DNA of 64,000 bases from contig JACIYJ010000004.1 of the NCBI GenBank assembly GCA_014360015.1, positions 257,520 through 321,519 on the forward strand. Reading direction: 5' to 3'. Under the pieces are notes generated by a model. The model had not been told where the DNA came from, did not search any database, and worked only from the letters and a program-made list of their open reading frames with translations. The position numbers and the translations under genes were made by a program. Each line of letters opens with the position of its first letter. The stretch's first letter is position 1. Origin of the DNA: Candidatus Aminicenantes bacterium. GTDB taxonomy: Bacteria; Acidobacteriota; Aminicenantia; Aminicenantales; Saccharicenantaceae. Below, in pieces: positions 2,274-29,672 of this stretch.

Positions 2274-3677
2274 TTATTTTTTCAGCTGATAACCCTTTTC
2301 TCTGAACAGGCGGAGACAGGTTTCAACTACCTTCTCATCATAAAGACGTCCTCTGTTATTTTCCATTTCCCTCAGTGCTTCCTCAAGAGTATAAGCTTCG
2401 CGATAAGGTCGATGCGAAGACATAGCTTCCACCACATCAGCCACAGCCAGAATTTTAGCTTCGATCATAATCTGGTCACTGGTTAATCCCCGCGGATAGC
2501 CTGAGCCATCCAGCCGTTCATGATGCTGATAAATTATTTCAGCTACCGGCCAGGGAAAATCTATGTCTTTGAGTAAATCGTAGCCAATTTGAGCGTGATT
2601 CCTGACCAGTCCCCATTCGCTTTCGCTTAGCTTCCCGGGTTTACTGAGTATCTCCGACGGGACAGCAATTTTCCCAATGTCGTGGATTTGAGCTGCCAGC
2701 CTGAGCCCGTCGATTTGTTCCGGCGAGAGCCCCATTTCTGTGGCGATGAGCCTGGCCAGGTCAGCCACTCTTCTTTGATGGCCACCGGTATAAGGGTCCT
2801 TTAATTCGACCAATTTATTTAAAGTATCGATGGTTGCCCCAAAAGCCTGGCGTAATCTTCCTAAGGCTTCCTTAAGTTTATCCTCAGTTCTTTTCCTTTC
2901 AGTTATATCATGAATCACCATCAGAGTAGCTGGAGAACCATTGTACTCAATAAGGCTGACATCAACTTCAATCCAGAGCATCTGGCCATTTTTATGGTGC
3001 ACTTTCAGCTCATAATGACTCAGACGAGACTCGCCGGTCAGTCTTTTTCGATAAAGCTCGAATATTTCATAAGCCTTTTTTTCGGGTAAATAGGCATCGA
3101 TTCTGGAACCAATGATTTCTCCAAGGCTGTAGCCAAAAATATCCGATGTAGCCTTATTGGCGAACTTTATTTTCCCGTCCTGAACGATAACAATAGCGGC
3201 CCGGGCATTCTCGATAAGACGGGAACTGATAGATTCTCTCTCTTTAAGCTGCTCCCTGAGATTAATCTGTTCAGTGACGTCCCGGACCACACCAACAACT
3301 CTTCCTCCCGAAATCGGGGTAGTATTGAACTCGAGGTGAATCAGCCGTCCAGATTTAGTAAAAACCCGAAGTTTATATACTGGCGGCAGTTGTTCCCAAC
3401 GGCTTAGGGCCTCTTTTCGCTTCAGGAGCATTTCTCTGTCATCTGGATGGACTTGCTTGAAGATAAGTTCTGTTCCGCTTTCAAGAATTTCTTCTCGACT
3501 GAATTCAGTCATCCGGGCAAAGCCAGTATTGACATACTCAAAGCCTTTTTCACCTATAATGTATATTCCATCCCTAGCTTCTTCTACTAAAACCCGGCAC
3601 AGCTCTTCGTTCATTTTTAAAAGATAAGAGCTATCTGGATTTGACCACTGGTACTCAGGTGGCTTATTTTTTTTCAT
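2274..3677 (-). CDS. PAS-PAS-HD-GYP domain protein (probable c-di-GMP phosphodiesterase)
   Basis: Two PAS-like modules are followed by an HD-GYP catalytic region (HDIGKIAVP...HHERLDGSGYPRGL). Confidence 0.85.
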   Translation of the reverse strand: MKKNKPPEYQWSNPDSSYLLKMNEELCRVLVEEARDGIYIIGEKGFEYVNTGFARMTEFSREEILESGTELIFKQVHPDDREMLLKRKEALSRWEQLPPVYKLRVFTKSGRLIHLEFNTTPISGGRVVGVVRDVTEQINLREQLKERESISSRLIENARAAIVIVQDGKIKFANKATSDIFGYSLGEIIGSRIDAYLPEKKAYEIFELYRKRLTGESRLSHYELKVHHKNGQMLWIEVDVSLIEYNGSPATLMVIHDITERKRTEDKLKEALGRLRQAFGATIDTLNKLVELKDPYTGGHQRRVADLARLIATEMGLSPEQIDGLRLAAQIHDIGKIAVPSEILSKPGKLSESEWGLVRNHAQIGYDLLKDIDFPWPVAEIIYQHHERLDGSGYPRGLTSDQIMIEAKILAVADVVEAMSSHRPYREAYTLEEALREMENNRGRLYDEKVVETCLRLFREKGYQLKK

Positions 3678-4055: not shown

Positions 4056-4221
4056 CTTTCCTTGATAAAGAGGGCCTTTCAGAATAGCCTGACGAGGGTA
4101 GGTTAGACGAAAAAGAGAATGGAGAATAAGGGATTTTCTTTTTTTCAGAGTAGAAATCATTCTTTCAACCCTATCTTCAAACCAATAATCATAAAATTAC
4201 CTTAATTTGAGGGAGGTTATT

Positions 4222-5655
4222 ATGCCATTAACCACCTGGCTTATTATTATCGGCGCAATCATCCTTTTCTTGGGACTCATTGGATTGCTCTTAGCCACCC
4301 AGTACCGAAAAGTCGGTCCAAACGAAGCCCTCATCATCGCCGGGGGCCGTAAGCGGACCATCACTTTCCCAGACGGGACAAAAAAGAAAGTTGGCTATAG
4401 ATACAAACTCGGCGGCGGTACTTTTGTCTGGCCGTTCATCGAAAAAGTTTATGTCCTGCCGCTTGAAGTTATTACCCTTTTCATTAAAACACCAGAAGTC
4501 CTGACCCACGGCGGGATCCCGATCCTGGCTGAAGCTTCGGCCCAGGTCAAGGTTGATTCCACCGATCTGGCCATTCGCCTGGCAGCCGAGCAATTCCTCG
4601 GCACAGGCAAGGAAGGCATCCGCGATGTGGCCATGAATGTCCTGGAAGGTAAGATGCGGGAAGTCATCGGCACGATGACGGTGGAAGAGATTTACCGCGG
4701 CCGTCAGGAATTCTCCAGAAGAGTGATTGAGACGACCAGAGAAGATTTCGCCAAAATGGGACTGGTGCTCCTGTCCTTCTCGCTCAAGGACATCAGCGAC
4801 ACCCAGGGCTACATCGAGGCTTTGAGCAAACCAGTCATTGCCGCGGCCAAACGGGATGCGGCCATCGCCCAGGCTGAGACGGAAAAAGAAGCTATTATCA
4901 AGTCATCTCAGGCTCGAAAAGAAGCTGAAGTGGCTCGACTCCAGTCAGAGGCTCTCATAGCCAAAGCCCAGTGGGAAAATGAAGCCAAGAAAGCTGAATC
5001 CCAGGTTTTCGTCAACCAGAAAAAAGCTCAGGCTGATTTTTCCTATGAACTCGAACGCAACCGCTTGGCTCAGGAAATTAAGAAAGAAGAAGCTAAGGTT
5101 AAACAGATTGAAAAAGAAGAAGCCATCAAAATCGAAGAGCTGGAAATTAAGCGCAAGGAAAGAGAACTTGAAGCTAATGTCCTGAAACCGGCTGATGCTC
5201 GCAAATATCAGATTCGGGCTGAAGCTGAAGCTGAAGAAATTCGGCTGATGGCTGAAGGAAAAGGCAAGGCCGAAGCCCTGAGGCTGGAAGCTCAGGCTAA
5301 AGCTGAAGAAATCAGACTCCGCGGTCTGGCTGAAGCTGAAGCCATGATGAAGAAAGCTCAGGCCTGGGAAAGATACAACGAAGCCGCACTCCTTGAAACC
5401 TTCATCAAGGTCCTTCCCGAGCTGGCCAGAGCCATCGCCGAACCTTTGTCTAAGGTCGATAAAATCGTCATTATCGGCGGAGACAAAGGGCTGGGGACAA
5501 GCCAGATCACCGGCCAGATTATTGAAATTCTGGCTCAGATGCCGGAAGTGGTCAAGGCTCTCACTGGTGCTGACCTGAGCAAGTTCCTCAGAGATAAGCT
5601 CAATCCGGCCGTTCAGTCTCAGGCCCCTCAGGAAAAAACTCCTGAGAAGAAATAA
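4222..5655 (+). CDS. Flotillin / SPFH (band 7) family protein with a C-terminal EA-rich coiled coil
   Basis: An N-terminal TM anchor is followed by an SPFH domain and a long A/E/K coiled coil (EAEAEEIRL repeats). The start is moved to the ATG at 4222, which follows a GGGAGG RBS; the TTG at 4207 lies within the RBS itself. Confidence 0.8.
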   Translation: MPLTTWLIIIGAIILFLGLIGLLLATQYRKVGPNEALIIAGGRKRTITFPDGTKKKVGYRYKLGGGTFVWPFIEKVYVLPLEVITLFIKTPEVLTHGGIPILAEASAQVKVDSTDLAIRLAAEQFLGTGKEGIRDVAMNVLEGKMREVIGTMTVEEIYRGRQEFSRRVIETTREDFAKMGLVLLSFSLKDISDTQGYIEALSKPVIAAAKRDAAIAQAETEKEAIIKSSQARKEAEVARLQSEALIAKAQWENEAKKAESQVFVNQKKAQADFSYELERNRLAQEIKKEEAKVKQIEKEEAIKIEELEIKRKERELEANVLKPADARKYQIRAEAEAEEIRLMAEGKGKAEALRLEAQAKAEEIRLRGLAEAEAMMKKAQAWERYNEAALLETFIKVLPELARAIAEPLSKVDKIVIIGGDKGLGTSQITGQIIEILAQMPEVVKALTGADLSKFLRDKLNPAVQSQAPQEKTPEKK

Positions 5656-5679: not shown

Positions 5680-8004
5680 ATGGTTTCAGAAAGAGTAAAC
5701 AAAATAGGAGCTTCTCCCACTCTTAAAATCTCAGCCAAAGCTAAAGCCATGAAGGCTGAGGGCATAGACGTGGTCGACCTCAGCGTGGGTGAACCTGATT
5801 TCCCGACGCCGGATAACGTCAAGGCAGCGGCGATTAAAGCCATCGAGCAAAATTTCACCAAGTACACCGAAAATGATGGAATTCCGGAGCTGAGAAAAGC
5901 GGTCTGCAAGAGGCTTAAAGAAGATTACGGGCTTGAATACAAACCCAACGAGGTGCTGATTTCGAGCGGGGCCAAAAACTCACTTTTCAATCTGATTCAG
6001 GCCATCGTCAACGAGGGAGATGAAGTGATCATCCCTGCCCCCTACTGGGTCACTTATCCGGAGTGCGTTAATCTGGCTAAGGGCAAGCCGGTTATAGTCG
6101 AGACAAGGGAAGAAGATGGCTTTCTGCTGACACCGGAGCAGCTGCGGGCGGCCATATCGCCATCGACGCGGGCCCTGGTGCTTAATAACCCGTGCAATCC
6201 AACTGGAGCTACATACACCAAGGAACAGCTGGAAGCTCTGGCTGAAGTGATTCGCAAAGAAGACATCTATGTGATTGCCGATGAGATTTACAGCCGCTTA
6301 GTCTATGATGGCTTTCAGTTTGTTAGTTTCGCTGCGCTGGGTGAAGATATCAAGAAAAAAACGATTATCATCAGTGGAGTTTCCAAAAGCTATTCGATGA
6401 CCGGGTGGAGAATCGGCTTTGCTGTCGGACCGGCTGAGATCATCAGTGCTATGTCCAAGATACAGAGCCATACTACTTCCAACGCCTGTTCCATCTCGCA
6501 GAAAGCCAGCGTCGAGGCTCTGGCCGGACCACAATATGAAGTTAATCGGATGGTGGCTGAATTCCAGCGCCGGCGGAATTATGTGCTGATGCGACTTCAG
6601 CAAATTCCAGGAATTTCCTGTTTTAAGCCCCAGGGAGCTTTCTACCTTTTCCCCAATGTGAGTTCATATTATGGCAAGGAAGCTGGTGGCATCCAGATTA
6701 GAAATTCTTACGGTCTGGCTTATTATCTGCTGAAAGAAGCCCGGGTGGCCGTCGTGCCAGGGGATGCGTTTGGAGCCGATAACTACATAAGGATATCTTA
6801 TGCCACCTCGATGGAGAACCTGGAAAAAGGCATGGATAGAATCGCTGAAGCCATGTCTAAGCTGAAGACAGCGAAGAAGGTTAAGAAGATTTACCTCCAG
6901 AATTACGTAACTAAGGTAAAAAAGTCAGTGCCGCTGGATGTAGTGAGTGAGGCTCGGATGCGCGAGGCCTTGGTGGCGGAGATGGAAAGCCATCTCAGCT
7001 ATGACAGCTATTACGAGTGGAATGCCAATATTAACGGGACAATTGTTCAGCTGAGAACTAACGTCGGGCATCTTTATGATTTCTGGGTGGAAAACTGGTA
7101 TCCAGGTCAGATCGAAGCTGGACTTGAACCGCACGCCGTGATTTATGCGGTGGATAATGTTCCGGGAAGAGAGCCGCGAGCTTATTACCATCCAGAGACT
7201 AGGACGGGAATTCTGGTCAACGCTGACAACTACGGACCGCTGAGGAAGCTGGCTCTCGGCATGGTGCTCGACTCGCAGGAGCATTTAGGAATCAATGCCG
7301 TGCGGGGCATGGCCGTTGCAGTGGATGGAAATGGGATGGTCCTGGTGGGCCAGCCAGGGACAAAGAAGACCGAGCTATTTTTCGAGCTCCTGAAGATGCC
7401 GCGGGTCCAGGCTCAGACTAACGAGATTGTGTTTGTGCGGTTTTCAGGGAATAAAGCGGTGGCCGATAGCGTTGAGCGGAAATTCTACATTCCAACAAAT
7501 ACTGTGGAACTTTTCGACAGATTGCCCAAGCTTTTTGACCACAGCAAGTGCGAGAATGTGGTGACCCGCCGTGAAGACTGCACTGACCGAACCTGTCCGC
7601 TTCAGGATGAATGCCGCTTAGATAAAGGCGCACCGTATTGTTTCAGAGCCTCGGCAGAAGCGCATGCCATGCTCGACCCGACCTGGATTGCCGGACCGCA
7701 AGGCTATGCCAGAAGAACCAACCTGAAATCTCTGGTGATACTGCGAAACGACCAGGTGTCGCCGGCGGTGGTGGAGTTGAGCAAAGAAGAAGCGCTGCGG
7801 ATTCTGGAAAGTGGAGAGCCTTCGGGTGCAGTAAAGTCAATCTCGGCTAAAGCTCAGCCTTTCTTCAACCCCCATCTTCTGGTGATGAATGAGGATAAGA
7901 TAGCGATTCAGCGGATGTTCTTCAGCCGCCTGCTGGACCAGGTGAAATGCTATATGGTAAACAGCGGCGTAGCCAGCCCCGACCAGCTCAAGAATCTTTT
8001 ATAG
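5680..8004 (+). CDS. Fusion protein: class I aspartate/aromatic aminotransferase (aa 1-395) joined to an HprK/PEP-carboxykinase-like P-loop domain with a Cys cluster
   Basis: The N-terminal half carries all AspAT class-Ib hallmarks (GEPDFPTP, SGAKNS, NNPCNPTG, SKSYSMTGWRIGF with the PLP lysine in SKS). After a Lys-rich linker, VAVDGNGMVLVGQPGTKKTELFFELLK aligns with the HprK/P core (LITGKSGVGKSETALELIK). A C-x10-C-x4-C-x5-C-x8-C cluster follows. Confidence 0.7.
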   Translation: MVSERVNKIGASPTLKISAKAKAMKAEGIDVVDLSVGEPDFPTPDNVKAAAIKAIEQNFTKYTENDGIPELRKAVCKRLKEDYGLEYKPNEVLISSGAKNSLFNLIQAIVNEGDEVIIPAPYWVTYPECVNLAKGKPVIVETREEDGFLLTPEQLRAAISPSTRALVLNNPCNPTGATYTKEQLEALAEVIRKEDIYVIADEIYSRLVYDGFQFVSFAALGEDIKKKTIIISGVSKSYSMTGWRIGFAVGPAEIISAMSKIQSHTTSNACSISQKASVEALAGPQYEVNRMVAEFQRRRNYVLMRLQQIPGISCFKPQGAFYLFPNVSSYYGKEAGGIQIRNSYGLAYYLLKEARVAVVPGDAFGADNYIRISYATSMENLEKGMDRIAEAMSKLKTAKKVKKIYLQNYVTKVKKSVPLDVVSEARMREALVAEMESHLSYDSYYEWNANINGTIVQLRTNVGHLYDFWVENWYPGQIEAGLEPHAVIYAVDNVPGREPRAYYHPETRTGILVNADNYGPLRKLALGMVLDSQEHLGINAVRGMAVAVDGNGMVLVGQPGTKKTELFFELLKMPRVQAQTNEIVFVRFSGNKAVADSVERKFYIPTNTVELFDRLPKLFDHSKCENVVTRREDCTDRTCPLQDECRLDKGAPYCFRASAEAHAMLDPTWIAGPQGYARRTNLKSLVILRNDQVSPAVVELSKEEALRILESGEPSGAVKSISAKAQPFFNPHLLVMNEDKIAIQRMFFSRLLDQVKCYMVNSGVASPDQLKNLL

Positions 8005-8359
8005 ATGTTAAAAAAACGGGGGACGTCCTACGCGTTTCCTGATTTTCAAGGGACGTACCGTAAAAACTGGTGACACCTTAAGTATTTCCCATTTTTAGGG
8101 ACACTTCTAATAACTGGTTTTTTAACTCAAAGATGGTCCTTAATTCATTGCGAAGAAAATTCCCGCTATTTGTCCTAAGCTCTTTAATTCTTCTTTAGCT
8201 TCCCAATTCTTCAGGCTACTCAGGCTGCACTTCATTTGCGCCAGATTGAAATTCGCTGATACACCCCCCCCTTCACTCACACTATGAATAGAAAATCTCC
8301 CACTCCAGTGCGCACGAGAACAAAACCTCGCCGATCAGAAAACGAGGAAGTCCTGCCTT

Positions 8360-9565
8360 TTAATAAATCGGCCACCGCCTGGTGATGAAACCATCGCGGA
8401 TTTCACGCCAGCTTCCCAACACTTCATCGGCTATTTTATAAACTTCATTTCTGACTTTGCTAACATCCACACCCCATATTTCCACGTTCAAAGCCTGAGG
8501 CTGGGTAATGGGTTCGTTTATCTGGCTGACCATGTAGACATAGACCTGCTTCGCCTCGGGTATTTTCTCCACGATACGGTCGGCAATAAGTTGGCTCATT
8601 ATGCTGTAAATCTTTCCCACATGACTGACCGGATTTTTTCCGGCCACAGCTTCCAGGCTCATCGGCCGGTAGGGAGTGATCAATCCGTTGGCGCGATTAC
8701 CACGGCCTACCTGACCGTCGTCTCCGGCTTCGGCGCTTGTCCCCGTAACCGTTAGGTAGACTGTCTCCGGCGTATCAGCATTATTTATGATAACTTCCAC
8801 CTTTCGCGATGTGTAGCGACGGACAAATTCATCCTGAAGGTAGCGGACGATTTCTTTTTTCATCTCTTCATAGGTCTGTCTATCTGGTACCATTGAAGCT
8901 ACAAAGGCTGCGGCCACTGTTAGGGTTATCGCTTCTCCTTTCCTGACCCCCATCACCTTAATATCTTCACCGAGCGCCGGAAACTTCTGCTTGCCCTGAA
9001 CGCTGTTTAAGAATCTCTCGGTTTCTAAAACCAGCTTTTCCAGTTCACTCAACGGCGCATAGCCGACTGCCAAAGAAGTATCATTGGCCCGCGGCGGCTG
9101 GTCGTTATCAGCGAAGATGCTGACCAGGTCTTCGCTTCCGGAGCGAATCAAAAGCTCAACTTCAAGATGTTCGGGCCGAAGATGGGGCACCTGCCGCATC
9201 ATCCAGTCTTTCAGTTTGGCTTCAAAGTGGCGCCTGTCTATCAATTTTTTCCCGCTGAATTCTTCTGTTGCCCGGCCTACAATGTACAGCTTAACTGGCT
9301 CAATTATCTTCCCTCCGCCAAACTGACACTTTGAACTGCCACCCACCAGAACAGCTTTATCCACATTATGGTGCAGGATTCTGCCGGTATGCTGACGATA
9401 GGTTTCCGAAAGAGCCACTGAAAGCTCTTCAGCCGCTCCATCGCAAAGAGAATCAGGATGGCCTTTTCCCTTGCGCTCTACGATTTCCACGGGCATTTCT
9501 TCCGCCAGTAAATCTCGTCCCGTTCTTACCTCAAAATAAAATCCAGACATTTCTACCTCCGACAT
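8360..9565 (-). CDS. Archaeal-type S-adenosylmethionine synthetase (methionine adenosyltransferase, MAT)
   Basis: VEIVERKGKGHPDSLCDGAAEELS matches the archaeal MAT signature (EIVERKGLGHPDSICDG). At about 400 aa it fits the archaeal form and does not resemble bacterial MetK. Confidence 0.8.
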   Translation of the reverse strand: MSEVEMSGFYFEVRTGRDLLAEEMPVEIVERKGKGHPDSLCDGAAEELSVALSETYRQHTGRILHHNVDKAVLVGGSSKCQFGGGKIIEPVKLYIVGRATEEFSGKKLIDRRHFEAKLKDWMMRQVPHLRPEHLEVELLIRSGSEDLVSIFADNDQPPRANDTSLAVGYAPLSELEKLVLETERFLNSVQGKQKFPALGEDIKVMGVRKGEAITLTVAAAFVASMVPDRQTYEEMKKEIVRYLQDEFVRRYTSRKVEVIINNADTPETVYLTVTGTSAEAGDDGQVGRGNRANGLITPYRPMSLEAVAGKNPVSHVGKIYSIMSQLIADRIVEKIPEAKQVYVYMVSQINEPITQPQALNVEIWGVDVSKVRNEVYKIADEVLGSWREIRDGFITRRWPIY

Positions 9566-14315: not shown

Positions 14316-15356
14316 ATGTCCCGTTATTTAATTACTGGGGGATCTGGTTATTTTGGTTCTGTGCTGGTTGAATATCTGCTTTCGCAGGGCCATGAATGTA
14401 TCAATGTGGATATTTGCCCACAAATTATCTCACATGAATCCTTAAAAACTTTTGAGATCGACATCAGAAATTATGAGGAACTCAAAAACATATTTGAATC
14501 ATGCGGTCCTTTTGATTCAGTCTTCCATCTGGCAGCCATGCTGGCCCACTCAGTTAAAGATAAAAAGGCTTTAATGGAAACAAACGTTCTCGGCACTGAA
14601 AATGTGGTCAAATTATGTGCAGAGTTTGGCATCAAAAACCTGGTTTTCACCTCCAGTAACTGCCTTTGGGCTAAACCATTCGGCCGTCCTGTAACCGAAG
14701 AAGATAAACCGGAACCCGTGGAAGTATATGGACTCTCAAAGATGAAGGCAGAGGAAGTTCTTTTTAACTACGCTGATAGAGTCAATTCTGCCATTCTGCG
14801 TGTGCCAACGATTATAAGCTCTGGTCGTCTCGGACTTCTGGCTATATTGTTTGAATTCATAGAAGAAAACAGAATTGTCTGGATGGTAGGGAAAGGGGAA
14901 AACCATTACCAGTTTATCTATGGACCCGACCTTGCCCAGGCTGCCCTTCTGGCTTCTACAATTAACCACACCCGAATTTATAATGTAGGGAGCGATCAGG
15001 TTAAGAGCTTAAAGGAGATTTATCGGTATGTAATAGACAGGGCCGGTTCAAAGTCTAAAATCAAGCACCTGCCCAGAGTGCCCGCCATTCTGGCTATGAA
15101 AATCGCCCACTTTTTAAAATTATCTCCACTCGGCCCCTACCACTATAAAATGATTGCCGAAAGTTTTGAATTTGATACCTCAAGAATAAAAAACGAATTG
15201 GGCTGGAAGCCAACAAAAACAAACGAAGAAATGCTTTTCGAAGCCTTTCTTTATTACAAAGAGCATAAAGATGAAATCCAAAAAAGGCAAATGGCTTCAG
15301 CCCATAGAAAGCCCGCAGAAATGGGAATAATTAAATTATTGAAATGGCTATCATAA
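14316..15356 (+). CDS. NAD-dependent sugar epimerase/dehydratase (extended SDR)
   Basis: An N-terminal Rossmann motif ITGGSGYFGS is followed by the YxxxK catalytic region (YGLSKMKAE). It is the first gene of the AT-rich island. Confidence 0.8.
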   Translation: MSRYLITGGSGYFGSVLVEYLLSQGHECINVDICPQIISHESLKTFEIDIRNYEELKNIFESCGPFDSVFHLAAMLAHSVKDKKALMETNVLGTENVVKLCAEFGIKNLVFTSSNCLWAKPFGRPVTEEDKPEPVEVYGLSKMKAEEVLFNYADRVNSAILRVPTIISSGRLGLLAILFEFIEENRIVWMVGKGENHYQFIYGPDLAQAALLASTINHTRIYNVGSDQVKSLKEIYRYVIDRAGSKSKIKHLPRVPAILAMKIAHFLKLSPLGPYHYKMIAESFEFDTSRIKNELGWKPTKTNEEMLFEAFLYYKEHKDEIQKRQMASAHRKPAEMGIIKLLKWLS

Positions 15357-17053
15357 GCAACAAAAAAACTATCTTTTTAGTATGTATCTTCTCTTTTACA
15401 ATAATTGTTTTCCTGTCTGCCTTTCTAAATTTACTATTGGCTGTATTCCCGGTAAACTATGAACTGGGACATGATGAAGCAGAGCACCTTCATGTAGCCT
15501 ATCTTCTGGAGCAAGGACAAAGACCCTACCTTGATTTTATCGAAAACCATCCAACACTTTTTAACCATTATCTTAAATGGCTCTGGAAATTTTTTAAATT
15601 GCACACGGTTAGAGAGTGGGCCTTCGCCGCCAGGCTAACGATTTTCTTCCATATTGTTTTAATGTTTCTGATATTCTTCATCTGGCTTTCAGGTTTGATA
15701 AAACCAAAACCCAATAAACTGTTTATCACATTCTGCTTTTTGTTAAGTTTTTCTTTTATAGGTTTTTATCACGGCCAGCTGGAATTTATGTGGCAGATCA
15801 GACCGGATTGGATTAGTTATGGGTATTCTTTTTTAGGTTTTTATCTCTTCTATCTCTATCTAAGACACAGGGTTCAAGATAAACACCGTTTACCGTCTGC
15901 GATTTATTTAGTGATTGGCGCAGCGTTTGTTGGGCTCGGAAACGCTATCCTGCCCAAAGGATTTACCATTATATTGGGGATAACTATGGGCCTTTTATTG
16001 CTAACGTTTACGAGGCAGATTAATAGAGACTTAATTTTTAGCAAAAAAGTCATAAATGGCTCGATTCTATTTGGAATATTGGTCTTTATTTTTTTCATTC
16101 TATTTGCGAATTTGGATTGCAAATTATCAAATGTCGACCTGATAAGCTGGGCAAAAGCTAACTTTCTCCTCAATTCTTCAAAACATCTGCCATTAACCAA
16201 TGCAGATAACAATCCGATAACTTCTTTAAGCGCTATTTTTTCGCTCAATTTGACCTTAATTCTCGTCCTTTCGACTTGGCTATTTGTAAAAATTTCATCT
16301 CGGCAAACAGATGAAGGCTCAAACACCGAGAAACAACTATTAGTCTTAAGCACATCTGTAATAATAATTAACGTCTCGATGACAGGATTTGGTAATGGAC
16401 TATCCTGGCCTCATTATTTTATTCCAAGTGTTTTTGCCGCTTTAACCATATACATAATTCTTATCCTTGACCTGATTAGTTTTAAGAGAGCTTTAAGATT
16501 AAAAAAAGCAAACTTCCCAGAAAAATATTTTTTTATACTTGCGATAGTCATAATATTCTCCGTATTGTCAAAGCAGCCCATGGGATTATACAGCGGAATT
16601 ATTAATCGCCAGGCAAACCTTTCCGACAGCCTGGTGATGAAAAATAATGATTACTTAAATGAGTCTATCCTGCCAAATAACTTCATCTATTTCACCCCTA
16701 AGCCAACAGAAATGCCCATAAGGGCCCGCCATGCCGGTTATTATTTTATGCTGGTAATTGACAAAAAAATCTGGAATGATTGTTATAATTTAGGTCTTGC
16801 CCCTGAGCCTGAATCTCACCTCAAGCATCTGTTTGATACAAATCCACCTGATATTTTAGCTTTTAACGGTATGGTTAAATTATATGAGTATGTTGTCTTT
16901 GCTTATGCTGTTCAGGAAGTTAATTTGACTTGGCTTTTTGATGAGGTAGATAAACGCTATGTATTAATGAAAAACAGACAAAGGCAGATTTTCGTAAGAG
17001 AGGATTTAACTGAGCTTATGACATCAAAAGGCTGGGAGAAGGTATCAAAATGA
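15344..17053 (+). CDS. Polytopic membrane protein, possible GT-C-type (ArnT/PMT-like) glycosyltransferase
   Basis: It has at least 12 predicted TM helices and a short N-terminal loop with acidic residues (HDEAEH). It is very AT-rich, and its start overlaps the epimerase stop. Confidence 0.45.
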   Translation: MAIISNKKTIFLVCIFSFTIIVFLSAFLNLLLAVFPVNYELGHDEAEHLHVAYLLEQGQRPYLDFIENHPTLFNHYLKWLWKFFKLHTVREWAFAARLTIFFHIVLMFLIFFIWLSGLIKPKPNKLFITFCFLLSFSFIGFYHGQLEFMWQIRPDWISYGYSFLGFYLFYLYLRHRVQDKHRLPSAIYLVIGAAFVGLGNAILPKGFTIILGITMGLLLLTFTRQINRDLIFSKKVINGSILFGILVFIFFILFANLDCKLSNVDLISWAKANFLLNSSKHLPLTNADNNPITSLSAIFSLNLTLILVLSTWLFVKISSRQTDEGSNTEKQLLVLSTSVIIINVSMTGFGNGLSWPHYFIPSVFAALTIYIILILDLISFKRALRLKKANFPEKYFFILAIVIIFSVLSKQPMGLYSGIINRQANLSDSLVMKNNDYLNESILPNNFIYFTPKPTEMPIRARHAGYYFMLVIDKKIWNDCYNLGLAPEPESHLKHLFDTNPPDILAFNGMVKLYEYVVFAYAVQEVNLTWLFDEVDKRYVLMKNRQRQIFVREDLTELMTSKGWEKVSK

Positions 17054-28670: not shown

Positions 28671-29672
28671 ATGACTGCTGATTATATAAAGAATAACGGG
28701 AAAGAAATCATTAAAGCCATCATCGAAAATATCAAAGAAAGTATTTATGTGGTCTCCTCCCGTGGTTTTGAATTCGTCAATCCTGCCTTTGAAAGGCTCA
28801 CCGGTTACAGCGAAAAGGAGATATATTCCAAAAATTTCAATTTTCTCCAGCTCGTCCACCCAGACGACAGACATCTTTTTTCTGCTAAAAAATCACCGTT
28901 CTCCAAGCCAAGCCTCCCGGCCTCTTCCGAGCTGATCGAATTCCGCCTAATCACCAGGAAAGGAGAAGTCAAGTACGTTGAAGCCAGCACTTCTTCTCTA
29001 AAAGAAAACCCTGACCAGACCTTAGTCATTCTTAGAGATATAACTTCCAGAAAAAAAGCTGAAGAAGAATTGACCCAAACTCTCGATAAATTAAGAAAAG
29101 CTATGTCGGCCACCATTCAGGCTATTTCTCTGACAATTGAATCAAGAGACCCTTACACCGCCGGTCATCAGAAAAGAGTTTCAGATTTGGCCCGGTCTAT
29201 TGCCACCAGACTTACTCTCCCAGCAGAGCAAATCGAGGAGATAAGGTTAGCCGCCCTGGTTCACGACTTGGGAAAAATCTCGGTTCCGGCTGAAATTCTG
29301 AACAAGCCTGGACGTCTCAGTCCTCATGAATTTGACCTGATCAAAGACCACCCGAGGGTTGGCTACGAAATCCTGAAAACCATCGATTTCCCTTGGCCGG
29401 TAGCGGAGATTGTCTATCAACACCATGAAAGAATCGATGGCTCAGGTTATCCTCAGCGATTAAAAGAAGGCCAGATTCACCCCATGGCCAGAATTCTGTC
29501 TGTGGCTGATGTGGTTGAAGCTATGCTTTCTCATCGTCCTTACCGTTCGGCTTTTGCCCCGCGGGAAGTCATCCGGGAAATTAAAATGAATAAAGGCATA
29601 ACTTATGACCCCCAGGCTGTCGAGGCCTGCGTCGACATAATCAGAGAGAGATATCAGCTGGCCAGGGAATAG
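28671..29672 (+). CDS. PAS-HD-GYP domain protein (c-di-GMP phosphodiesterase), divergent from pilB
   Basis: A PAS module is followed by HD-GYP (HDLGKISVP...HHERIDGSGYPQRL). It is a close paralog of the HD-GYP region of the 2274-3677 gene. Confidence 0.85.
   Translation: MTADYIKNNGKEIIKAIIENIKESIYVVSSRGFEFVNPAFERLTGYSEKEIYSKNFNFLQLVHPDDRHLFSAKKSPFSKPSLPASSELIEFRLITRKGEVKYVEASTSSLKENPDQTLVILRDITSRKKAEEELTQTLDKLRKAMSATIQAISLTIESRDPYTAGHQKRVSDLARSIATRLTLPAEQIEEIRLAALVHDLGKISVPAEILNKPGRLSPHEFDLIKDHPRVGYEILKTIDFPWPVAEIVYQHHERIDGSGYPQRLKEGQIHPMARILSVADVVEAMLSHRPYRSAFAPREVIREIKMNKGITYDPQAVEACVDIIRERYQLARE

Follow-up and report, generated by a model that had tools for sequence, protein, structure and literature searches.

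The fusion gene and its aminotransferase half

This study concerns a gene of a Candidatus Aminicenantes bacterium, located on a 64,000-nucleotide stretch of contig JACIYJ010000004.1 (positions 257,520 to 321,519) that we refer to as the window. An earlier note on this DNA, made from the letters alone, had described the gene as a single open reading frame of 774 residues in which a class Ib aspartate aminotransferase (AspAT) is followed by a Lys-rich linker and an HprK-like P-loop domain with a Cys cluster. The reading frame and the AspAT assignment both hold. The C-terminal half, of about 370 residues, is identified by structure prediction and profile comparison as a truncated, two-lobed fold of the ATP-type phosphoenolpyruvate carboxykinase (PEPCK; enzyme PckA), which we term mini-PEPCK. 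The gene and its parts, in window coordinates, are listed below.

5680-8004, forward strand: whole gene, AspAT/mini-PEPCK fusion, 774 residues plus stop, a single ATG-started open reading frame
5680-6861, forward strand: class Ib AspAT domain, residues 1-394 (PF00155, NCBIfam and PDB matches)
6385-6387, forward strand: codon of Lys236, the Schiff-base lysine for pyridoxal 5'-phosphate (PLP), in the SGVSKSYSMTGWR motif, which aligns with gvskayamtgwrig of AspAT 6F35
6862-6894, forward strand: short Lys-rich linker, residues 395-405, LKTAKKVKKIY, of low model confidence (predicted local distance difference test, pLDDT)
6895-8001, forward strand: predicted mini-PEPCK-fold domain, residues 406-774, of the remodelled 'R148' class (AlphaFold2, Foldseek, hhalign)
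7303-7305, forward strand: Arg542, at the position of the PckA Mn-ligand His232 and of the conserved His of HprK (hhalign mapping)
7348-7371, forward strand: degenerate Walker A motif GQPGTKKT, residues 557-564, aligned to PckA G248-T255
7414-7431, forward strand: QTNEIV, in which Asn581-Glu582 are the equivalents of PckA Asp268-Asp269 (hhalign mapping)
7579-7641, forward strand: four-Cys (Cys4) insert C634-x4-C639-x5-C645-x8-C654, a probable structural metal site (predicted)

Judged by its sequence, the N-terminal half is an intact and ordinary class Ib AspAT. PF00155 covers residues 30-388 and profile positions 2-361 of 361 (E 3.9e-83, 280 bits against a cut-off of 19.7), and the best NCBIfam models for residues 3-395 are those of aspartate transaminase, matched below their equivalog cut-offs (465 versus 617 and 436 versus 550 bits). 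The nearest solved structures are the class Ib AspATs 6F35 and 1J32 (E ~1e-112), and some of the closest structures belong to AspATs for which prephenate, too, is a substrate. All the motifs are in place and align with 6F35: SGVSK236SYSMTGWR, NNPCNPTG (169-176), ADEIY (200-204) and YIRISYATS (369-377), the last with the C-terminal Arg. The roles of these residues, among them the PLP lysine and the C-terminal Arg that binds the alpha-carboxylate, are established for AspATs.

The Lys-rich linker described earlier exists (KLKTAKKVKK, around residues 395-405), but it spans only about ten residues, because the sequence from L406 onward (LxNxxTxVK) already belongs to the mini-PEPCK domain and is found in free-standing members of that family too. 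It is the sole low-confidence stretch at the junction; in the domain model pLDDT falls below 50 at residues 1-6, and in the full-length model it does so at residues 400-405.

Scanning one genome per species, we found 453 genomes with a relative, and the locus counts given here refer to the best 80 of these. In 79 of the 80 loci a single frame of 776-816 residues, free of stops, spans both halves, and the remaining locus ends at a contig edge. The 20 closest relatives (78-90% identity) belong to Candidatus Saccharicenans or other Aminicenantes metagenome-assembled genomes, which assigns the window to a Saccharicenans-like member of the Aminicenantes, and across Aminicenantes the identity is 56-90%. 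Relative to the Saccharicenans sequences, synonymous divergence (dS) is saturated and nonsynonymous divergence (dN) amounts to 0.04-0.09 in the N-terminal and 0.06-0.135 in the C-terminal half. The corresponding dN/dS ratios (omega) are low, at about 0.02-0.04 and 0.04-0.06, and both halves are therefore under strong purifying selection.

It is hardly credible, given these data, that the fusion is an artefact, be it two genes run together through a frameshift in sequencing or assembly, which the earlier note had named as a way in which it could be wrong, or a decaying pseudogene tail. What could be cited in favour of an artefact is the state of the public databases, where these proteins go by the names 'aminotransferase' or 'hypothetical protein' and are often entered as partial or split, and where some assemblies call the AspAT and the C-terminal half separately. 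Two long-read metagenome assemblies (L094, 3724-6065; L098, 5001-7287) indeed give two gene calls each, which arise from frameshifts within the AspAT part. A natural split gene in L094 was considered and rejected, as the frameshift lies inside the AspAT part and the junction reads through intact; the calls in L098 overlap likewise. The many 'partial' or free-looking entries for the C-terminal half are thus attributable to gene calling and to frameshifts in long-read assemblies. The single frame shared by 79 species genomes and the omega of the C-terminal half argue in the same direction. Split gene calls of this kind could mislead counts of domain architectures.

The mini-PEPCK domain and its family

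The C-terminal half is not recognisable by direct searches. Neither Pfam (up to E 10) nor a sequence search of the PDB returned a match, and no Pfam or NCBIfam model, including the curated HprK/P and PEPCK models, reaches its cut-off. Its homology emerged only through a family profile, a structure model and profile-profile comparison. An AlphaFold2 model of the domain, built with 30 family members, has a pLDDT of 89.3 and a predicted template modelling (pTM) score of 0.88, and displays the two-lobe fold of PEPCK. The earlier note would have been refuted by a predicted structure unlike HprK and PEPCK, and the model shows no such structure. When this model was compared with the PDB by Foldseek, the top 35 matches were all ATP-PEPCKs (E 2.5e-18 to 3.6e-16, ~400 aligned columns, query TM-score 0.65-0.73), from E. 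coli, Thermus, Anaerobiospirillum, Actinobacillus and Trypanosoma, with the GTP-PEPCKs next. In line with this, hhalign aligned domain residues 8-380 with PckA 37-459 (95.2%, E 2.5e-8), and more strongly when a richer PckA profile was used (96.9%, E 1.6e-10). The domain ends after an NSG motif, and the C-terminal nucleotide subdomain of PckA is gone.

The resemblance to HprK/P was reproduced as well. In a search of PDB sequences with the family profile, the HprK/P chains 1KNX, 1KO7 and 1JB1 were the only matches with E <0.05 (0.005-0.01), and AVRGMAVAVDGNGMVLVGQPGTKKTELFFELL matches the Walker-A core of HprK/P, within the aligned segment AVRGM...GQPGTKKTE. The P-loop is degenerate, as previously noted, with Lys in place of Gly before the Walker Lys. 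The label 'HprK-like' placed the domain in the right superfamily, since HprK and PEPCK share the P-loop lobe, but it is too narrow, because the whole C-terminal half, with both lobes, matches PckA rather than HprK/P. By the defining features that we tested, the domain conforms to neither HprK/P nor PckA, although it is homologous to both, and it stands outside both curated families. PF27840 was considered as a dedicated family and rejected: the precomputed match on archaeal members proved to be a faint match to the HprK-related ScmC family.

Searches for relatives delineated a small, unnamed family without a curated model. We found 138 database relatives at E <= 1e-3 (best 1e-150) and 408 cluster representatives among 1.84 billion proteins, and the match to the family profile extends over the full ~370 residues of the window domain. 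When the 229 full-coverage members were sorted by which residue occupies the PckA His232 position, a free-standing class (n = 90, median 387 residues) separated from a fused class (81 Aminicenantes and 56 other sequences). The states of the catalytic positions are listed below in E. coli PckA numbering; counts for the fused class are those of the Aminicenantes set.

PckA R65: R in 88/90 free-standing; S, A or P in fused; S416 in the window
PckA Y207: Y in 90/90 free-standing; N in 70/81 fused; N517 in the window (Y518 adjacent)
PckA K212: K in 90/90 free-standing; R in 80/81 fused; R522 in the window (K523 next)
PckA H232 (sorting criterion): H in 90/90 free-standing; R in 81/81 fused and in 56/56 of the others; R542 in the window
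P-loop: A-x-x-G-x-G-K-S in 88-90/90 free-standing; G-x-x-G-T-(K55/R16/N7/G2/Q1)-K-T in fused; GQPGTKKT in the window
PckA D268-D269: DD in 90/90 free-standing; N in 76/81 then D/E in 81/81 fused; N581-E582 in the window
PckA K288: R or K in 88/90 free-standing; P in 75/81 fused; P605 in the window
PckA R333: R in 88/90 free-standing; H50/Q16/Y7/R4 in fused; H662 in the window

The catalytic set of PckA (R65, Y207, K212/K213, H232, G-x-x-G-x-G-K-T, D268/D269, K288, R333) is not found in the window protein. At position 562, the equivalent of the Walker Gly (PckA G253), it carries Lys, where all 90 free-standing members have Gly. As far as the alignment indicates, residues of PEPCK chemistry have been substituted in a coordinated manner within one monophyletic class. 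The fused class has, moreover, gained invariant residues of its own, such as R459, and the window protein displays every derived state (R459, R522, R542, N581, P605 and loss of the R65 equivalent). Invariant in the Aminicenantes (81/81, with E599 at 80/81) are K563, T564, D/E582, E599-R600-K601 and E625-N626, together with all four Cys of the insert. Other fused lineages no longer have the Walker Lys, as in the Zixibacteria-type motifs GMKRGS and GLSRGT, in P0086 (GGPGSGMSG) and in P0122 (HAPNVKKER), and it is also gone in the PckA-linked protein P0136 (GSSENDIAT).

A neighbour-joining tree (41 sequences, 348 columns, 100 bootstraps) supports this division. The remodelled class, comprising PckA-linked and AspAT-fused members, is monophyletic relative to all free-standing catalytic-type sequences (93/100), and the AspAT-fused set is recovered with 95/100. 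The AspAT fusion of the remodelled form occurs in Aminicenantes, Zixibacteria, Calditrichota and relatives.

The Cys cluster that had been noticed earlier is real, although its first spacing is x9 and not x10 (C624-x9-C634-x4-C639-x5-C645-x8-C654). The Cys4 insert is absent from free-standing proteins of the P0110 type and present in some other free-standing members, so that it is a feature of the family rather than of the fusion. Model confidence is lower in this region (pLDDT 67-79). The insert most likely holds a structural metal, making it a putative metal site.

The free-standing class matches PckA more strongly than the window domain does (hhalign 97.8%, E 6.9e-13), and because it keeps the whole PckA catalytic set, its members are probably active enzymes. 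One of them, P0192 (754 residues), contains an intein (PF14890) at ~216-393, directly after its GTGKS P-loop. Inteins usually insert in functionally critical sites, and this position therefore fits an active free-standing class.

A few further observations concern the surroundings of free-standing members. On a Bathyarchaeia contig (L090), a class I aminotransferase gene (4235-5428, reverse strand), whose product is 38% identical to the AspAT half of the window protein, is found two genes away from a mini-PEPCK of the catalytic type, which is encoded on the other strand (7001-8164, forward); this is a single case. In two Deltaproteobacteria-like loci (L001, 7671-7874; L087, 6031-6234) the mini-PEPCK is preceded by a gene for a 67-residue protein whose N-terminus is rich in His and whose core is ribbon-helix-helix-like. 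Such small upstream proteins were examined as possible HPr-like substrates and dismissed: those of L001 and L087 are ribbon-helix-helix-like, the 84-residue protein of L088 is unrelated to them, and no consistent pattern emerged. In L001 and L087 an NfeD1b/S49 protease gene follows the mini-PEPCK. NfeD1b/S49 proteases are the usual partners of SPFH proteins, and the arrangement echoes the flotillin link described below.

Genomic links to PckA and the window neighbourhood

The remodelled class is connected with PckA both by fusion and by gene adjacency. The 899-residue protein P0136, present on three contigs from different samples, joins a remodelled mini-PEPCK, its P-loop gone, to a genuine PckA (PF01293); its neighbourhood looks archaeal, with V4R, Roadblock and TFIIE-like genes. 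A second mini-PEPCK-PckA fusion, P0267, is 49% identical to it. At an archaeal locus (L095) the module is encoded by a separate gene, the stop of which overlaps the start of a 538-residue PckA gene by 4 nt. Downstream sequence of 1.8 kb or more is available for 68 Aminicenantes loci, and 21 of these have a gene for an ATP-PEPCK of ~610 residues immediately 3' of the fusion on the same strand, at distances from overlap to ~250 nt. The order in L098 is flotillin, fusion, PckA (starting 4 nt after the fusion) and nucleoside diphosphate kinase (NDK), and in L097 the distance to a PckA gene is ~3 kb. None of the catalytic residues is missing from the partner PckAs, which are 40-42% identical to each other across bacteria and archaea and 26% identical to E. 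coli PckA.

An NDK gene follows the fusion on a Zixibacteria chromosome (L096, 7587-8015) and follows fusion and PckA in L098 (9149-9562). With only two cases, this adjacency is too thin a basis for a functional lead.

Directly upstream of the fusion in the window lies its conserved neighbour:

4207-5655, forward strand: flotillin/SPFH gene (PF01145 and PF15975), probably co-transcribed with the fusion

The two genes are separated by 24 nt without a terminator-like site on the forward strand. A flotillin gene precedes the fusion in 71 of the 80 related loci and in the distant loci L097 (4173-5810) and L098 (3529-4767). In this arrangement a membrane-microdomain scaffold is encoded beside a soluble metabolic enzyme pair. 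The neighbouring genes that were scanned, which encode flotillin, RNase PH, a PAS/HD protein and S-adenosylmethionine synthetase, include none for HPr, the phosphotransferase system (PTS) or a precursor peptide.

Elsewhere in the window, the gene 3' of the fusion (8360-9565, reverse strand) encodes an S-adenosylmethionine synthetase of the archaeal type (PF01941, E 1.7e-144) in this bacterial Aminicenantes genome. For a 569-residue open reading frame at 15344-17053 (forward), Pfam gave no match at E 1e-3. An NAD-dependent epimerase gene extends with its end into this frame, and a flavin amine-oxidase-like gene comes after the frame. Two signalling proteins combine PAS and HD_5 (HD-GYP-like) domains (2274-3677, reverse; 28671-29672, forward). 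The window also holds a type IV pilus block at 24184-28318, with T2SSF and two T2SSE ATPases, and a sigma-54 two-component pair at 21369-24164.

Proposed role and comparison with known systems

PEPCK and AspAT are textbook enzymes of the PEP-pyruvate-oxaloacetate node, where PEP denotes phosphoenolpyruvate. To our knowledge, neither enzyme carries or needs an accessory module in prokaryotes. Loss of carboxykinase chemistry in the window domain is indicated by the missing equivalents of the Mn-ligand His232, R65, K288 and R333 and by the changed equivalent of Lys212/213. We propose, at roughly even odds (about 0.5), that the C-terminal half is a ligand-binding or adaptor module, itself not a carboxykinase, that couples the AspAT to PckA at the oxaloacetate node. 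The domain would no longer act as a carboxykinase or an HprK-type kinase and would be pseudoenzyme-like, which agrees with the regulatory or pseudo-kinase option raised earlier, the one that the evidence favours. Its old active-site cleft may have retained anion binding and may now be lined by Arg and Lys (R459, R522, R542, K562, K563, R600, K601), and its ligand could be a phosphate- or carboxylate-bearing metabolite of the oxaloacetate (OAA)/PEP node, or a nucleotide. The module could thereby serve as an allosteric sensor, as an adaptor that docks onto PckA, or as both. As an adaptor, it would allow OAA made by the AspAT to be passed to PckA for conversion to PEP (Asp to OAA to PEP). More tentatively, we envisage a specific version of this scheme in which the remodelled mini-PEPCK is a dead, PckA-binding paralogue, its fusion to the AspAT creates an OAA-channelling Asp to OAA to PEP metabolon, and the free-standing class represents a new minimal archaeal carboxykinase or kinase.

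Several points weigh against a coupling module. In the window and in the 20 Saccharicenans loci of its own clade no pckA gene is adjacent to the fusion, and none is present in the 64 kb of the window. The 21 loci with adjacent pckA come from related genomes and do not count as 21 independent events. The full-length AlphaFold2 model, calculated from a 63-sequence alignment, has a pTM of 0.51 and is uninformative on domain packing; the AspAT half is poor in this model because the alignment contains few full-length N-terminal halves. The residues were mapped by hhalign and not by superposition, leaving an uncertainty of about one position at R65 and Y207, although the two-class dichotomy is independent of this mapping. 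Furthermore, the invariance of K563, T564, D/E582 and E599-R600-K601 would fit retained binding of a phosphoryl ligand and would also be compatible with catalysis of a different reaction.

That same invariance of K563, T564 and D/E582 in Aminicenantes is the reason why we rank a true bifunctional enzyme as the main rival, albeit a doubtful one. The C-terminal half would then still be catalytic, as a phosphotransferase or carboxykinase with a remodelled metal site that acts on the product or the substrate of the AspAT, for example by converting OAA to PEP with pyrophosphate or polyphosphate as donor, by decarboxylating OAA or by phosphorylating aspartate. Such an enzyme would account for the constancy of Lys563-Thr564, D/E582 and the ERK motif across the 81 Aminicenantes sequences and for the strong purifying selection on the domain; OAA is common to AspAT and PEPCK, and the extra basic residue in the P-loop (K or R at 562 in 71/81) together with the lost nucleotide subdomain could suit a non-nucleotide donor. 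However, seven PEPCK catalytic equivalents are substituted, including the His232 Mn-ligand and Lys212-Lys213 positions, as is the Walker Gly. Sister fused and PckA-linked members lack the Walker Lys, and the class as a whole should therefore need no phosphotransfer; with an intact PckA next door in many genomes, a second carboxykinase would also be redundant.

The flotillin neighbour could instead be taken to favour a purely structural domain for oligomerisation or localisation, such as one tethering the AspAT to flotillin-organised membrane regions, without ligand sensing or coupling to PckA. The conserved flotillin gene in 71/80 loci and in distant lineages, the 24-nt gap without terminator and the decay of the P-loop in several lineages agree with this explanation, which we nonetheless consider unlikely, as it leaves both the cleft-type invariance (K563, T564, D/E582, ERK, R459, R522, R542) and the repeated fusion and adjacency to PckA unexplained. 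Quite improbable, finally, is a protein kinase/phosphorylase of the HprK/P type that would phosphorylate the AspAT domain, PckA or a small partner. HprK/P chains are the sole PDB matches of the family profile around the P-loop, and weak NCBIfam matches to HprK and HprK-related kinases exist, but both lobes match PckA far better and the HprK cut-off is missed by a wide distance (14 against 240 bits). The conserved His is replaced by Arg542, the Asp-Asp pair by Asn581-Glu582 and the Walker Gly by Lys, no HPr-like gene occurs among the nearby genes, and sister lineages have lost the Walker Lys.

Full-text literature searches yielded no description of an AspAT-PEPCK/HprK fusion, of the mini-PEPCK family or of an accessory paralogue of PckA, and the earlier remark that no aminotransferase fusion of this kind had been characterised stands for the searchable literature. 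Within the known PEPCK/HprK superfamily, the protein represents a branch and an architecture that are both new. The family exists in two states, a probably active minimal form, mainly in archaea, and a remodelled form repeatedly wired to oxaloacetate-handling enzymes. Together, the data point to an undescribed accessory part of the aspartate-oxaloacetate-PEP route. If the metabolon scheme is correct, the remodelled mini-PEPCK would be an accessory or channelling subunit of a kind not described before for any prokaryotic PEPCK, and a pseudoenzyme role would make it another clear case, in the central metabolism of bacteria, of a pseudoenzyme domain derived from an enzyme. The hypothesis can be tested by regulation and channelling assays of the Asp to OAA to PEP route. 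Aminicenantes are widespread, uncultured and fermentative, and their amino-acid and gluconeogenic metabolism is known from annotation only; a practical benefit would be the better annotation of genes now labelled 'aminotransferase' or 'hypothetical protein'.

When comparing the window domain with PckA (PF01293; E. coli 1AQ2/1OS1, Thermus 2PC9), the two-lobed fold is shared, as is the order of motifs: Y-G-x-x-[KR], the P-loop, an acidic pair, ENV, 'LxxDxxxxxPxxxxL' and NxG. The domain is, however, considerably shorter (~370 residues versus 540) and has no PF01293 match. Approximately the first 90 residues of PckA, among them the bulk of the R65 loop region, are absent, as are the last ~80, which form the nucleotide-base subdomain. 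Conversely, the Cys4 insert and the aminotransferase fusion set it apart from PckAs (~520-610 residues).

With HprK/P (PF07475, TIGR00679) and the HprK-related kinases (lasso-peptide kinases, ScmC) the domain shares the P-loop lobe of the superfamily. The Walker-A core of HprK/P aligns with the window segment AVRGM...GQPGTKKTELFFELL (E 0.005-0.01), and the HprK, HprK_rel_A/B and ScmC models give weak matches in family members. Nevertheless, the window protein scores far under the cut-offs (TIGR00679 14.3 bits versus 240; no PF07475 match at E 10), its N lobe is PEPCK-like, unlike the N-terminal domain of HprK/P, and the conserved His, Asp-Asp and Walker Gly of HprK/P are all substituted.

Relatives outside the fusion are the free-standing mini-PEPCKs (~355-390 residues; for example P0112, P0128 and P0314) of Bathyarchaeia, Methanosarcinales, Asgard archaea and some Deltaproteobacteria, which are annotated as hypothetical. 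They have the same length and lobes as the C-terminal half of the window protein and are 35-39% identical to it (E 1e-58 to 1e-65), but they are unfused, lie in housekeeping neighbourhoods and in many cases lack the Cys4 insert. The N-terminal half aligns end to end with stand-alone class Ib AspATs (Sinorhizobium AatB 6F35, Phormidium 1J32, Thermus 1BKG and the prephenate-aminotransferase-capable 5WMH and 6F77), all of which, unlike the window protein, are without a C-terminal extension.

On the level of function, a parallel is the malic enzyme MaeB. Its folds are unrelated to those of the window protein, and the regulatory role of the mini-PEPCK is one that we infer, so the analogy is a functional one only. 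In MaeB, the fused phosphotransacetylase-like domain is catalytically inactive, and its deletion abolishes allosteric inhibition by acetyl-CoA (PMC8100219). MaeB, too, belongs to the central metabolism around PEP, pyruvate and OAA, and its fused domain likewise derives from an enzyme (PMC8100219).

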